Source of the DNA: Chloroflexota bacterium
GTDB lineage: Bacteria; Chloroflexota; Dehalococcoidia; SM23-28-2; JACOUE01
Reading direction: 5' to 3'
Length of the DNA: 64,000 nt
Assembly (NCBI GenBank): GCA_016178045.1
Contig: JACOUE010000006.1
Coordinates: 1,067 to 65,066, forward strand
Shown: one piece after another, positions 29,167 to 38,643 of the stretch
How the letters are laid out: each line of letters opens with the position of its first letter
Position numbering within the stretch: position 1 is the stretch's first letter
Notes under the pieces: model-generated
The model's input: the letters and a program-made list of their open reading frames with translations, nothing else
What the model was told of the DNA's origin: nothing
The model's database searches: none
Program-made: the position numbers and the translations under genes

Positions 29167-30387
29167 ATGAAGAAGTGTCGCATCTGCGAGGGCCGTAACC
29201 TCCACAAGTTCCTCTCGCTGGGGAGGCAGCCCCACTGCAACCGCTTCCTGCGTGAGCAGGACCTCGCCCTGGACGAGCCTGCCTACCCGCTGGACCTCTA
29301 CTTCTGCGATGACTGCGCCCTGGTGCAGCTGGGGTACGTCGTTCCGCCGGAGAAGATGTTCCGCGACTACCCCTACGTCTCCGGGACGACGGCCACCCTT
29401 CCCGCGCACTTTCAGCGCCTGGCCCAGGAGATCGTCGCCCGCTTCGACGTGCCGCGCGGCTCGCTGGTAGCCGACATCGGCAGCAACGACGGCACGTTCC
29501 TGCGTGGCTTTCAGCAGCTGGGGATGCGCGTCCTGGGGTTCGACCCGGCCGTGAACATCGCCGCGCTGGCCAACGAGGCGGGGATCGAGACGGTGCCGGA
29601 GTTCTTCGATCGCGACGTATCCGCCAGGGCGGCGGCGGAAAAGGGGAAGGCGAAGGTGATCACCGCCGCCGGCGTCTTCTACCACGTGCCCGACCTCCCC
29701 GACTTCGTCGAGGGGGTGAGGGCGCTGCTGGCGGACGACGGGATCTTCGTGGTGCAGGCGATCTACCTGCTGGACATGATCGAGAAGACGTCCTTCGACA
29801 ACGTTTACCACGAGCACCTCTGCTACTACTCCCTCAAGCCCCTCACCGTCCTGTTCAACCGCTTCAACATGGAGGTGTTCGAGGTGGAGCGCGCCCCCAT
29901 CCACGGCGGCTCCATCATCGTCTACGTCCGCCAGGGGATCAGCCGGGGCCGGAAGGAGTCGGTAGAGGCCCTGCTGGCGGAGGAGGCGCGTCGCGGCCTG
30001 TACTCGCTGGAGACGTATCAGGAGTTCGCCTGCCGGGTGGCGGGCGTCAGGGAGAAGCTCGTCTCTCTCCTCCGCGACCTGCGGGCGCAGGGGAAGGGGA
30101 TCGCCGCTTACGGGGCGCCGGCCAAGGGGAACACCATGCTCAACTACTGCCGCATCGGGCCGGACGTCCTGAGGTACGCCGCCGAGAAGAACCCCCTCAA
30201 GCAAGGGCTGTACACGCCGGGCATGCACATCCCGGTCATTGCCGAGGAGAAGGCGCGGGAGGACCCGCCGGACTACTACCTGGTCCTCCCCTGGAACTTC
30301 CTCGACGAGTTCCTGGAGAAGGAGCGCGAGTTCCGGGAGAGGGGCGGCCGCTTCATCGTTCCCATTCCCGAGCCGCACATCGTCTGA
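29167..30387 (+). CDS. SAM-dependent NDP-sugar C-methyltransferase (TylCIII-like)
   Basis: Trimmed by 17 residues to MKKCRICEGRNLHKFLSLGRQPHCNRFL (N-terminal Zn-ribbon-like Cys cluster CRIC...CDDC). Has DIGSNDGTFL (SAM motif I) and the C-terminal C-methyltransferase domain (YAAEKNPLKQGLYTPG). Confidence 0.75.
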   Translation: MKKCRICEGRNLHKFLSLGRQPHCNRFLREQDLALDEPAYPLDLYFCDDCALVQLGYVVPPEKMFRDYPYVSGTTATLPAHFQRLAQEIVARFDVPRGSLVADIGSNDGTFLRGFQQLGMRVLGFDPAVNIAALANEAGIETVPEFFDRDVSARAAAEKGKAKVITAAGVFYHVPDLPDFVEGVRALLADDGIFVVQAIYLLDMIEKTSFDNVYHEHLCYYSLKPLTVLFNRFNMEVFEVERAPIHGGSIIVYVRQGISRGRKESVEALLAEEARRGLYSLETYQEFACRVAGVREKLVSLLRDLRAQGKGIAAYGAPAKGNTMLNYCRIGPDVLRYAAEKNPLKQGLYTPGMHIPVIAEEKAREDPPDYYLVLPWNFLDEFLEKEREFRERGGRFIVPIPEPHIV

Positions 30388-30406
30388 GAAGGAGGTCGCG
30401 CAGAGC

Positions 30407-31345
30407 ATGCGGATACTGGTCACGGGTGGCGCCGGCTACGTGGGCTGCGTTCTCGTGCCGCTGCTACTGGCGGCGGGACACCGGGTTGTCGTTCTGGACA
30501 GCCTGCGCAAGGGCGGCCTCGGGCTCCTCCCCTGGGCCGGCCACCCCCGCCTTGAGACCGTGGTCGGCGACGTCCGTGACGCTGAGGCCGTGCGGGGCGC
30601 GCTCAAGGACGCCGACGCGATCATGCACCTGGCCGCCATCGTGGGCTATCCGGCCTGCCAGAAGGACCCCTGGCTGGCCCGGACGACCAACTTGGACGGC
30701 ACCGAGAACCTCATCCGCCAGCGGTCACCGCAGCAGCCCATCATCTACCCCTCCAGCCTGAGCAACTACGGCACGGTGGTCGACCAGGTGTGCACGGAGG
30801 AGATGGAGCCGAAGCCCATCACCCTCTACGGCGTCACCAAGCAGGAGGCGGAGAAGCGCCTGCTCGAGGCCGGGAACGCCGTCGTCTTCCGGCCGGCCAC
30901 CGTGTTCGGCCTCTCGCCGCAGATGCGTCTCGACCTCCTCTTCAACGAGTTCGTCTACAAGGCGCTGCGCGACCGTCACCTCGTGGTGTACCAGCCGAAC
31001 TTCGTGCGGGCGTTCATCCACGTCCGCGACTTCGCCCGCGCTTTCCTCTTCGCCCTCGACCACCTGGAGGAGATGCGGGGGCAGGTCTACAACCTCGGCG
31101 CCGACTCCCTGAACCTGACGAAGGGCGAGCTGGCGAAGCGCATCCGCCGCCGCCTCGACTTCGTCCTGCGCATCTCAAACAACGGCGAAGACCCCGACAA
31201 GCGCAACTACCGGGTGGACTTCTCCAAGCTGACGCGACTGGGCTTTTCAGTGGAGACCGGCATCGACGAAGGGATCGACGAGCTGGTGCGGGGGCTGCCG
31301 CTTATAGAAGTCGACAACCCCTTCAGTAACGTCGCCTACACCTAG
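30407..31345 (+). CDS. NAD-dependent sugar-nucleotide epimerase/dehydratase (extended SDR)
   Basis: Trimmed to MRILVTGGAGYVGCVL, after GAAGGAGG. Has the YGVTK (YxxxK) motif. Confidence 0.75.
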   Translation: MRILVTGGAGYVGCVLVPLLLAAGHRVVVLDSLRKGGLGLLPWAGHPRLETVVGDVRDAEAVRGALKDADAIMHLAAIVGYPACQKDPWLARTTNLDGTENLIRQRSPQQPIIYPSSLSNYGTVVDQVCTEEMEPKPITLYGVTKQEAEKRLLEAGNAVVFRPATVFGLSPQMRLDLLFNEFVYKALRDRHLVVYQPNFVRAFIHVRDFARAFLFALDHLEEMRGQVYNLGADSLNLTKGELAKRIRRRLDFVLRISNNGEDPDKRNYRVDFSKLTRLGFSVETGIDEGIDELVRGLPLIEVDNPFSNVAYT

Positions 31346-36634: not shown

Positions 36635-37602
36635 GTGATCTGGTGGGAAAGCGCGTTGCGGTCACTGGAGGCGCCGGCTTTCTCGGGAATCACGTGGTGG
36701 AGCGACTGCGGGGGCGCGGGTGCCGGGACGTATTCGTGCCGCGCAGCGCCGAATACGACCTCCGCGATGGCAACGCCGTCGCCCGCGTGTACGAAAAGGC
36801 GAGGCCGCAGGTGGTTCTGCACCTGGCGGCCAGAGTGGGTGGCATCGGCTACAACAAGGAGCGCCCGGCGGAGACTCTGGTCGACAACCTGCTGATGGGC
36901 CTGCAGGTGATGGAGCAGGGACGGCGCTTCGGGGTGGAGAAGCTGGTGGCCGTCAGCTCCGTCTGCGCCTACCCGAAGTATGCCCCCCTCCCCTTCCAGG
37001 AGGGCGACCTGTGGGAGGGCTACCCGGAGGAGACCAACGGCCCCTACGGCGTCGCCAAGCGGGTGCTGGCGCTCCAGGCCCGGGTCTACCGCCAGCAGTA
37101 CGGATTCAACGCCGTCGCTCTCCTGCTGTCGAACCTCTACGGCCCCGGCGACAACTTCGACCCGTCTTCTTCGCACGTCATCCCGGCCCTCATCCGGCGC
37201 TGCCTGGAAGCGGCGGACGAGGGCCGGGAGAGCGTCGAGGTGTGGGGGAGCGGCAGCGCCTCCCGCGAGTTCCTCTACGTCGGGGACGCCGCCGAGGCCG
37301 TCGTCCTGGCCGCCGAGAGCTACGAGGGGCGGGAGCCCATCAATATCGGCAGCGGCGAGGAGGTCACCGTCCGTCAGCTGGCGGAGACCATCGCCCGGTT
37401 TACCGGTTTCCGGGGCCGCATCGAGTGGGACGCCTCGAAGCCCGACGGCCAGCCCCGCCGCAGCATCGACACGACCCGGGCGCAGTTTGAGCTGGGGTTC
37501 AAGACGAAGACGCCGCTGGAGGAGGGCCTGCGCAAGACGATCGAGTGGTACCTGGGGCAGCGGGAGACGGTAGCGGCACAGGTGGAAGGGAGAAGCGGGT
37601 GA
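36631..37602 (+). CDS. GDP-L-fucose synthase-like NDP-4-keto-6-deoxysugar 3,5-epimerase/4-reductase (intact paralogue)
   Basis: Trimmed by 28 residues to MSDLVGKRVAVTGGAGFLG (ATGA overlap). Has SSVCAYP, YGVAK and the NLYGPGDNFD motifs typical of the Fcl/ColC family. Confidence 0.8.
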   Translation: MSDLVGKRVAVTGGAGFLGNHVVERLRGRGCRDVFVPRSAEYDLRDGNAVARVYEKARPQVVLHLAARVGGIGYNKERPAETLVDNLLMGLQVMEQGRRFGVEKLVAVSSVCAYPKYAPLPFQEGDLWEGYPEETNGPYGVAKRVLALQARVYRQQYGFNAVALLLSNLYGPGDNFDPSSSHVIPALIRRCLEAADEGRESVEVWGSGSASREFLYVGDAAEAVVLAAESYEGREPINIGSGEEVTVRQLAETIARFTGFRGRIEWDASKPDGQPRRSIDTTRAQFELGFKTKTPLEEGLRKTIEWYLGQRETVAAQVEGRSG

Positions 37603-38643
37603 CTACCGAAGCTATCGATACGCGGCGGGCCCTGCGCGAGGCCCTTCAGCGCCACTTCGTCGAGCAGGCGCAGGTTCCCTTCGTCCCCGGGCAGACGCGC
37701 ATCCCCCTGATGGTGCCGCCTTACGGCTGGGAGGAGGCTCGTGGACGTGGAGCTGGAGACGTTCAACATATCGCCCGACGAGATCGAGAAGGCGATGACG
37801 CCGCGGACACGGGCGATCGTGCTGGCCCACCTGCTGGGCAACCCCTGCGAGATGGGGCGCATCATGGCCATCGCCCGTCGGCACGACCTGCTGGTCATCG
37901 AGGACGCCTGTGAGGCCCACGGCGCCGAGTACAGGGGCCGGAAGGCGGGCGGCTTCGGCGATATGTCGACCTTCAGCTTCTTCTTCGGTCACCACATCAG
38001 CACTATCGAGGGCGGTATGCTCCTCACGGACGACGACGAGTGTGCCGAGCTGGCCCGCACCCTGCGCGCCCACGGCTGGGTCCGCGATCGCTCCGACCGG
38101 GACGCTATCGCCCGCGGGCACCCGCAGATCGACCCGCGCTACCTGTTCGTCAACCTGGGCTACAACTTCCGTCCCACTGAAGTGCAGGGCGCCTTCGGCG
38201 TCCACCAGCTGAAGCGGCTCGAGGGGTACGTAGAAGCCAGGCGCGAGAACGCCCGCTACTGGAGCGGGCAGCTGGCCGGGCTTTCACCTCACCTCACCTG
38301 CCACAGCGAGAGGGAAGGGACGAGGCACGTCTGGTTCGGGTACCCAATGCTGGTCAAGCCCTCGGCCCCTTTCACCCGCGCCCAGGTCATGGCCCACCTG
38401 GAGGAGATGGGCGTCGAGACGAGGCCGGTGCTGGCGGGGAACATCGAGGAGGAGACGGTGATGCGGCTGGTGCCTTACCGGAAGGTAGGCGGCCTGGCCA
38501 ACGCCCGCTTCATCCACCGCAACGCCTTCTACATCGGCAACCACCAGGGCATCGGCTCTGAAGAAAGAGAAGCGGTGGCGGATTATATCCGGGACTTCGT
38601 GGTCAGCCGTGACGGGATGGTCGCCGGGAAGGCGAGCCGATAG
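37599..38643 (+). pseudogene. ColD/RfbH-type PMP-dependent NDP-4-keto-6-deoxysugar 3-dehydratase with an internal deletion of about 85 codons plus a frameshift
   Basis: GTG-initiated N-part VTTEAIDT...VPFVPGQTRIPLMVPPYGWEEA (tail of ORF 37545..37913) jumps frame directly into VDVELETFNISPDEIEKAM... (ORF 37741..38643). The segment holding the small-domain/PLP-phosphate pocket (xSGSxAN...GDEVI...) is absent. The active site reads FSFFFGHHISTIEGG, with His in place of the aminotransferase Lys, as in ColD/E1. Confidence 0.7.

Follow-up and report, generated by a model that had tools for sequence, protein, structure and literature searches.

A 64,000-nucleotide stretch of DNA from an uncultured Dehalococcoidia bacterium (positions 1067-65066 of contig C5 of a metagenome-assembled genome, MAG; hereafter the window) carries what is best explained as a mosaic cell-surface glycan cluster. 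In this reading, to which we assign a probability of about 0.5, a heptose linked to guanosine diphosphate (GDP) would first be oxidised at C4 and would then receive a C-methyl group, probably at C3, and/or an amino group by transamination at C4, with the C6 hydroxyl kept. For the methyl and amino arms the genes are complete and the genomic context gives good support; a third arm, for deoxygenation, is dead as assembled. The original prediction for this DNA had proposed a branched, amino, deoxy sugar on a GDP-linked scaffold, made by seven types of gene located between 29167 and 38643. All seven types are found on the + strand within that span, and both active-site motifs quoted for them (FFADKSITTGEGG and FFFGHHISTIEGG) occur in the translations.

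More specifically, a supply module made up of a transaldolase, two GmhA-type isomerases, two HddA-type kinases, one GmhB phosphatase and one nucleotidyltransferase would furnish nucleotide-activated D-glycero-D-manno-heptose, most likely GDP-linked. A first short-chain dehydrogenase/reductase (SDR1) would oxidise C4 and leave the C6 hydroxyl in place, since a 4,6-dehydratase is not available. A C-methyltransferase would then put a methyl branch beside the keto group, most likely at C3 by analogy with TylCIII and TcaB9, with C5 also possible. The 4-keto group would be converted to a 4-amino group by a DegT-family aminotransferase, or reduced to a hydroxyl by a second SDR (SDR2, a reductase candidate) or by an intact Fcl (a candidate 3,5-epimerase/4-reductase), which could also epimerise C3 and C5. 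GT4 enzymes would transfer the product, and the many methyltransferases dependent on S-adenosylmethionine (SAM) encoded in the cluster could O- or N-methylate it. Expected products would thus be a C-methyl heptose, a 4-amino-4-deoxy heptose, or the doubly modified 4-amino-C-methyl heptose. Substrates, the sequence in which the steps occur and the carbon that is methylated are all deduced here from homology and gene context. As a tentative extension, all intact enzymes acting in series would yield GDP-4-amino-4-deoxy-3-C-methyl-heptose, an eight-carbon branched amino sugar for which we found no literature report among open-access papers. Such a sugar would be the heptose counterpart of sibirosamine-type sugars.

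Probable heptose supply module and predicted C4 oxidation

The genome (2.03 Mb in 85 contigs, 89.8% complete) has Dehalococcoidia MAGs as its nearest public relatives. The G+C content of the window is about 69%, and a long + strand operon extends from about 22.1 kb to 53.5 kb. Open reading frames (ORFs) were chosen from frames supported by the G+C content at third codon positions (GC3) and annotated with Pfam and NCBIfam profiles. What was observed directly is the presence and integrity of genes, the patterns of catalytic residues, the ranking of homologues and the neighbourhoods of genes. The genes assigned to heptose supply and C4 oxidation are the following.

22143-22856, + strand: sugar-1-phosphate nucleotidyltransferase, HddC-like, in the heptose module (PF00483, 74 bits)
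22853-23845, + strand: first HddA-like GHMP kinase (GHMP_kinases_N/C), part of the core module and conserved within the taxonomic order
23849-24475, + strand: first SIS-domain isomerase, GmhA-like (PF13580/PF01380; 65-70% identity in relatives L012, L014 and L015)
24489-25184, + strand: short transaldolase/FSA-family enzyme within the heptose module (PF00923, 159 bits)
25181-25735, + strand: GmhB-like HAD phosphatase (PF13242 and PF00702)
25732-26403, + strand: second GmhA, nearer the canonical phosphoheptose isomerase (NF010546, 212 bits; TIGR00441, 192 bits)
30407-31345, + strand: SDR1, Cj1427-like nucleoside diphosphate (NDP)-heptose C4-dehydrogenase (PDB 6VO6/6VO8)
32361-33407, + strand: second HddA-like GHMP kinase (HddA model, 224.6 bits; cut-off 600)

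The isomerase, kinase, phosphatase and nucleotidyltransferase types of the Campylobacter jejuni supply pathway are all present at 22143-26403. The first kinase reaches 167.5 bits on the HddA model (cut-off 600) and is 62-72% identical to the kinases of relatives. The transaldolase, which probably supplies sedoheptulose-7-phosphate to GmhA, is found at the same place in the same-order relatives L012, L014 and L015 (65-68% identity), where the nucleotidyltransferase also has an orthologous position. This nucleotidyltransferase is the only one in the cluster. With NCBIfam profiles it scores below all cut-offs, at 67 bits for HddC (cut-off 300), 100 for mannose-1-phosphate guanylyltransferase and 110 for MurU. 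A large DUF4012 protein (26243-28351), conserved in relatives, separates the supply module from the tailoring genes.

The second kinase had been left unexplained in the original prediction. Its sequence identifies it as a paralogous HddA: it scores higher than the first kinase on the HddA model (225 versus 168 bits), shares 35% identity with it, and matches the solved kinases WcbL (4USK/4USM, 213-215 bits), 3K85 (211 bits) and C. jejuni HddA (4N3O, 186 bits). Orthologues of the second kinase were taken from a genome search across the class. In other Dehalococcoidia families these orthologues (45-50% identity) lie between GmhB and a SIS gene of the second-GmhA type, and this SIS gene is the nearest relative (46-50% identity) of the second GmhA in the window. 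The second kinase and the second GmhA therefore form a recognisable pair type, and because this pairing recurs in other Dehalococcoidia, the most plausible source of the duplication is the merging of two heptose-module lineages in a single cluster. As a result, two isomerase/kinase pairs of differing ancestry share one phosphatase and one nucleotidyltransferase.

SDR1 matches C. jejuni Cj1427 from end to end (268.9 bits, E-value 5.7e-79, residues 2-308 against 4-311); the next match in PDB has 90 bits. On this homology it is predicted to be a Cj1427-type C4-dehydrogenase. To recognise a 4,6-dehydratase, we relied on an Asp or Glu following the catalytic Ser or Thr, as in the 'SSE' of GMD or the 'TDE' of RmlB. 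The motif of SDR1 ('PSSLSNYG') has no such acidic residue after the catalytic Ser, which argues against a 4,6-dehydratase.

The association of SDR1 with heptose genes was surveyed in reverse: SDR1 homologues (43-50% identity) were collected at 80 loci spread over many phyla, and the genes within 10 kb were counted. HddA-like genes were present in 44 of the 80 loci, Fcl-like genes in 32, HddC-like genes in 25, GmhA and GmhB in 22 each, DegT in 16, Gmd in 14 and a C-methyltransferase in 11. Frequently the C-methyltransferase immediately adjoins the SDR1 homologue, and in several archaeal and bacterial loci DegT does so as well. In loci L208, L229, L258 and L194, from Thermoplasmatota archaea, a Pseudomonadota MAG and a Sungiibacteriota MAG, the gene immediately upstream of the Cj1427-like gene is of the DegT type; a 4-amino-heptose route may also be recurrent. 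In the relative L012, an SDR1 orthologue (48% identity) and a second Fcl-like gene are located between the transaldolase and Gmd.

Proposed C-methylation and transamination, and the choice of substrate

The tailoring genes proposed to act together with SDR1 are listed below.

29167-30387, + strand: TylCIII/TcaB9-type sugar C-methyltransferase, full length (PF08421, 85 bits; PF13489, 66 bits; PF08484, 205 bits)
31355-32371, + strand: SDR2, an SDR of the GDP-mannose 3,5-epimerase (GME)/Fcl superfamily (GME structures PDB 2C5E/2C59, 141 bits)
33404-34582, + strand: DegT-family aminotransferase (PF01041, 392 bits, profile positions 4-360)
36631-37602, + strand: intact Fcl/ColC-like 3,5-epimerase/4-reductase (GDP-fucose synthase model, 295 bits; cut-off 500)

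The C-methyltransferase aligns with its solved homologues over residues 3-406, and the C-x2-C ... C-x2-C motif of the zinc-binding N-terminal domain is visible in its sequence. In a survey of its homologues, 58 loci were fetched and screened with the proteins of the window. The nearest homologue (60% identity) was found in a Solibacteraceae locus (L115), next to a guanylyltransferase-like NTP-transferase, DegT, two SDRs, an HddA-like kinase and a Cj1427-like SDR. Two Actinomycetota loci (L121 and L122) and several candidate-phyla loci likewise have HddA, HddC or Cj1427-like neighbours. In a maximum-likelihood tree, the C-methyltransferases of the window, L115, L121 and L122 form a four-member clade (SH-aLRT branch support 100), and all four have a heptose context, with HddA-like and/or Cj1427-like genes adjoining. 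A candidate-phyla clade shows the same association; a large alphaproteobacterial clade does not have heptose genes nearby. Mapped on the tree, the heptose label changes 4 times against 7.6 changes expected from shuffles, and none of 500 shuffles gave a number as low. This context points to an NDP-4-keto-heptose, not a 4-keto-6-deoxyhexose linked to deoxythymidine diphosphate (dTDP), as the substrate. With the gene intact and neighbourhoods of C-methyltransferase, Cj1427-like and HddA genes recurring across phyla, the predicted C-methylation gains support. The recurrence also suggests that a C-methyl version of heptose is common in uncultured lineages, namely the candidate phyla radiation, Chloroflexota, Acidobacteriota, Actinomycetota and some Proteobacteria. 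Our literature search, limited to open-access papers and hence weak evidence, returned no report of a C-methyl or branched heptose or of a GDP-heptose C-methyltransferase.

The amino group foreseen by the original prediction is likewise supported by an intact gene. The catalytic Lys that binds pyridoxal phosphate (PLP) is present in DegT within FFADKSITTGEGG. Among solved structures, DegT matches 7B0M best (248 bits), followed by GDP-perosamine synthase (3BN1/3DR4/3DR7, 239-242 bits, with 3BN1 at 242), and it scores 283 bits against the LegC family of NCBIfam. By sequence it resembles C4 aminotransferases of the GDP-perosamine synthase type.

Two enzymes are candidates for reducing the keto group. 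In SDR2, the Tyr-x3-Lys is kept and the two acid/base residues of GME are replaced (Cys145 by Phe, Lys217 by Ser), which rules it out as a GDP-heptose 3,5-epimerase; we regard it as a candidate C4 ketoreductase from its sequence. Its motif 'TSSVFVYP' does not have the acidic residue of 4,6-dehydratases. The original prediction had suggested looking for 4,6-dehydratase residues in the two SDRs; compared with the 'ASSEMFG' of Gmd in relatives, neither 'SSLSNYG' of SDR1 nor 'TSSVFVYP' of SDR2 qualifies, and motifs and best homologues together rule out a 4,6-dehydratase among them. The intact Fcl matches GDP-L-fucose synthases (PDB 8DU0, 248 bits; E. coli Fcl, 218 bits), keeps its acid/base residues Cys ('SSVCAYP') and His ('SSSHVIP'), and is the orthologue of the Fcl found beside ColD in relatives (64-69% identity).

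The carrier nucleotide is suggested by these same homologies. SDR1 is Cj1427-like, the best solved homologues of SDR2, Fcl and a ColD-type gene described below are GDP-sugar enzymes, a GDP-sugar enzyme ranks second for DegT, and the sole nucleotidyltransferase of the cluster is in the heptose module. The predicted GDP-linked heptose scaffold is thus upheld as the likely one.

Several observations weigh against a C-methylated GDP-heptose. Every gene of the heptose module scores below the NCBIfam equivalog cut-offs (168 and 225 of 600 for HddA, 67 of 300 for HddC); with the module below cut-offs and the nucleotidyltransferase at only 67 bits against HddC, we infer GDP rather than show it. In addition, the nearest characterised homologues of the C-methyltransferase are dTDP-sugar 3-C-methyltransferases (PDB 4RV9, 378 bits; TcaB9, 307 bits), and the genome encodes RmlB (446 bits) and a long-form RmlA (428 bits), both above cut-off, on contig C65, as well as an RmlC-like gene on contig C55. 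The C-methyltransferase and DegT could then act on dTDP-4-keto-6-deoxy-D-glucose made by RmlA and RmlB encoded elsewhere, with dTDP-3-C-methyl and/or 4-amino-4,6-dideoxyhexose as product, and an L-configured heptose, as in C. jejuni HS:2, would come separately from SDR1 and Fcl. We consider this unlikely. The rml genes are on other contigs, beside rhamnosyltransferase-like genes, whereas the C-methyltransferase clade of the window is always beside HddA-like or Cj1427-like genes. No 4,6-dehydratase of the Gmd or RmlB type was seen beside the loci of this clade, where RmlA was not searched for. The nucleotidyltransferase of L115 scores higher with guanylyltransferases than with RmlA, and the rank of GDP-perosamine synthase among the homologues of DegT also speaks for GDP.

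RmlB and the long-form RmlA are at a contig end (C65:18-3219) and the RmlC-like gene is at a contig start (C55:5-439); the assembly has probably cut an rml cluster apart. We also ruled out a dTDP-sugar source in the form of an rml operon within the window, the minus-strand genes at 54-58 kb being AglJ/AglG-like glycosyltransferases, an SDR and an oxidoreductase.

Two broken genes and the deoxy arm

Further points against the favoured reading come from two broken genes in the cluster.

28362-29164, + strand: broken Fcl-family gene, with the N-terminal part to about 28640 in one frame and the C-terminal part in another
37599-38643, + strand: pseudogene of a ColD-type PLP-dependent 3-dehydratase; the ORF at 37741-38643 carries the His motif FFFGHHISTIEGG

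The original prediction had named a ColD-type gene with a His active site. The His-for-Lys motif is indeed there and the best match is ColD/WbdK (200 bits), but the ORF matches only residues 107-376 of ColD (positions 140-437 of the RfbH profile). The N-terminus is found as 46 codons in another frame (37599-37736), with a GTG start overlapping the stop of Fcl. At the junction, 'GWEE' ends at 37736, one extra base follows, and 'LVDVE' starts at 37738. Three full-length ColD orthologues hold exactly 89 residues between 'GWEE' and 'LVDV', including 'NSGSSANL' and 'TPAVTW'; the gene as assembled is therefore an out-of-frame internal deletion of 266 nt, with 89 codons missing and a frameshift. Full-length ColD orthologues of the same order are open frames of 429-536 amino acids.

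Three-frame translation of the broken Fcl, directly upstream of the C-methyltransferase, and its alignment to the intact Fcl show a loss of about 52 residues, among them the catalytic Ser and Tyr-x3-Lys; where Fcl has its catalytic His, Pro is found. The C-methyltransferase is preceded by an Fcl-like gene in candidate-phyla loci. Nevertheless, the nearest relatives of the broken gene are ColD-adjacent Fcl genes of its own order (about 41% identity), and for this reason we dropped it as the cognate reductase of the C-methyltransferase cassette.

Gene order in relatives accounts for the deoxy arm. Same-order relatives have the conserved order HddC-HddA-GmhA-GmhB-transaldolase-(DUF4012)-Gmd-Fcl-ColD-GT4, with a canonical Gmd. 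As these relatives hold the Gmd-Fcl-ColD trio, the ColD/Fcl arm of the window is best seen as an ordinary colitose-type module that has decayed here. No Gmd was found in the whole genome (89.8% complete), where the Gmd of a relative as query returned only RmlB-like or other SDRs at 32% identity or less; as the genome is only about 90% complete, this absence is not proof. With Gmd absent and ColD internally deleted as assembled, neither a 6-deoxy nor a 3,6-dideoxy product is expected, and the deoxy part of the original prediction is not supported; neither SDR has the acidic residue of 4,6-dehydratases. In L011, L012, L015 and L031, all same-order Dehalococcoidia, the canonical Gmd lies between the heptose module (or DUF4012) and Fcl-ColD, so that a full colitose-type trio adjoins the GDP-heptose module.

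Whether the ColD deletion is fixed was approached through the independent Logan assembly of run SRR12113387. There the flanks of ColD are identical to the window, and one contig stops at position 37736, precisely the final base ahead of the junction; the next contig found starts at 38522. Since Logan contigs here are 1.3-6.6 kb long, a break at the exact junction base is unlikely by chance; such a break would be expected where the assembly graph branches between a deleted and a full-length allele. We take the deletion to be real in the deposited genome and possibly polymorphic in the population.

This break, together with the full-length ColD kept in relatives, would fit a functional ColD, the deletion being a minority allele or an assembly artefact. 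A 3-deoxy heptose would then arise, through ColD acting with SDR1 and Fcl/SDR2, in addition to the methyl and amino changes; it would be 3-deoxy and not 3,6-dideoxy, as there is no 4,6-dehydratase. Such chemistry has a precedent in vitro, where Cj1427 and a C. jejuni C3-dehydratase give GDP-D-glycero-3-deoxy-4-keto-heptose (PMC10680097). We nevertheless hold it to be quite improbable: the deletion stands in the deposited 65.8-kb contig, an assembly error would not readily skip 266 nt in the absence of a long repeat, a chance break remains conceivable, if unlikely, with such short Logan contigs, and Gmd, the usual partner of ColD in relatives, is absent.

Two broken genes also raise the chance that the whole cluster is decaying, with the tailoring block a remnant and only plain heptose, or nothing, incorporated. 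The two internally deleted genes lie within 10 kb of each other, and the kinase and isomerase genes are redundantly duplicated. However, the other genes checked over 22-50 kb are full-length open frames with high GC3 (0.81-0.94), the seven genes compared with solved homologues match over about their whole length, the checked catalytic residues of SDR1, DegT and Fcl are intact, the Tyr-x3-Lys of SDR2 is kept, and neighbouring genes overlap or touch, as they would in a working operon. General decay is, on this evidence, very unlikely, and we retain C4 oxidation of GDP-heptose followed by C-methylation and/or transamination. In this cluster, turnover of sugar pathways can be seen at one locus, with a colitose-type arm decaying beside an intact methyl/amino arm.

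Relation to known pathways and neighbouring genes

The closest known systems are the capsular GDP-heptose pathways of C. jejuni, with which the window shares the supply set (SIS isomerase, GHMP kinase, HAD phosphatase and small nucleotidyltransferase), the Cj1427-type enzyme and an Fcl-family reductase/epimerase. The ColD-type gene, broken in the window, belongs to the kind of enzyme represented in C. jejuni HS:5 by a PLP-dependent C3-dehydratase (PMC10680097, PMC10440746). C. jejuni uses such a dehydratase to make GDP-3,6-dideoxy-heptoses (PMC10440746, PMC10680097), so that 3,6-dideoxy-heptoses, which the original prediction had placed beyond Campylobacter chemistry, are already part of it. 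Differences are found on both sides. The window has neither a cupin-type C3/C5 epimerase of the Cj1430/DdahB type (PF00908 matches only contig C55) nor a 4,6-dehydratase; it adds a TylCIII-type C-methyltransferase and a C4 aminotransferase, and its supply module contains a transaldolase. The 20 enzymes catalogued for C. jejuni include neither a TylCIII-type C-methyltransferase nor a C4 aminotransferase, and the word 'aminotransferase' occurs 0 times in the text (PMC10680097).

The GDP-colitose pathway (Gmd, ColD and ColC, in E. coli O55 and others) has in common with the window an Fcl/ColC-like gene followed by a ColD-like gene with the His motif. With Gmd absent and ColD short of 89 codons, it cannot run here as assembled. 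TylCIII, TcaB9 and MtmC (4RV9) share with the C-methyltransferase the three-domain architecture, the zinc-binding four-Cys N-terminal domain and a full-length alignment (307-378 bits). They act on dTDP-6-deoxyhexoses, whereas the enzyme of the window has a GDP-heptose context and groups in a clade of its own, linked to HddA-like and Cj1427-like genes.

A 4-amino-4-deoxy-heptose is known from septacidin (PMC9978623). The L-heptosamine of septacidin is made by the SepI oxidase, the SepJ/SepA epimerases and the SepG aminotransferase following the same logic, with oxidation of heptose at C4 and then PLP-dependent C4 transamination. However, the septacidin oxidase depends on flavin adenine dinucleotide and acts on an adenine-N-heptoside, not an NDP-sugar, and the enzyme families are unrelated to those of the window (PMC9978623). 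Septacidin is moreover a secondary metabolite, whereas the cluster of the window would serve a surface glycan.

The biochemistry of heptose tailoring is known mainly from Campylobacter capsules, which contain epimers, 6-deoxy and 3,6-dideoxy forms. Should C-methyl branches or 4-amino groups be installed on an NDP-heptose, the range of monosaccharides known from bacterial glycans would gain a new class. If the intact enzymes do act in series to give the 4-amino-3-C-methyl sugar, the cluster would be one elaboration of a widespread, uncharacterised cassette of a Cj1427-type oxidase and a C-methyltransferase that makes C-branched heptoses in many uncultured phyla.

The remaining genes of the tailoring block are the following.

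34543-35832, + strand: GT4 glycosyltransferase (PF13692 and PF00534), paralogue of the genes at 39431-40603 and 42890-44167
35816-36634, + strand: class I SAM methyltransferase (PF08241, 79 bits)
38643-39395, + strand: class I SAM methyltransferase, followed by more GT4, Wzx, FkbM and methyltransferase genes to about 50456

The first two intervene between DegT and Fcl, so that the seven gene types of the original prediction, described there as contiguous, all fall in one span but do not form an unbroken series. Among the proteins encoded at 29167-39395, 7 of the 10 looked up in a collection of about 15 billion proteins were singletons at 90% identity, and the exact sequences of the other 3 were not found in it. 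No second assembly of the same species is on record.

After the glycosyltransferases, a 743-amino-acid DUF2206 membrane protein (48225-50456) may be a polymerase or a transferase. Just downstream of the operon, the minus strand at 54227-57897 encodes AglJ-like and AglG-like glycosyltransferases, an SDR and a Gfo/Idh/MocA oxidoreductase; the AglJ/AglG-like matches are to types from archaeal S-layer N-glycosylation and lie below cut-off. A UDP-glucose 6-dehydrogenase-like gene is located at 58536-59759.

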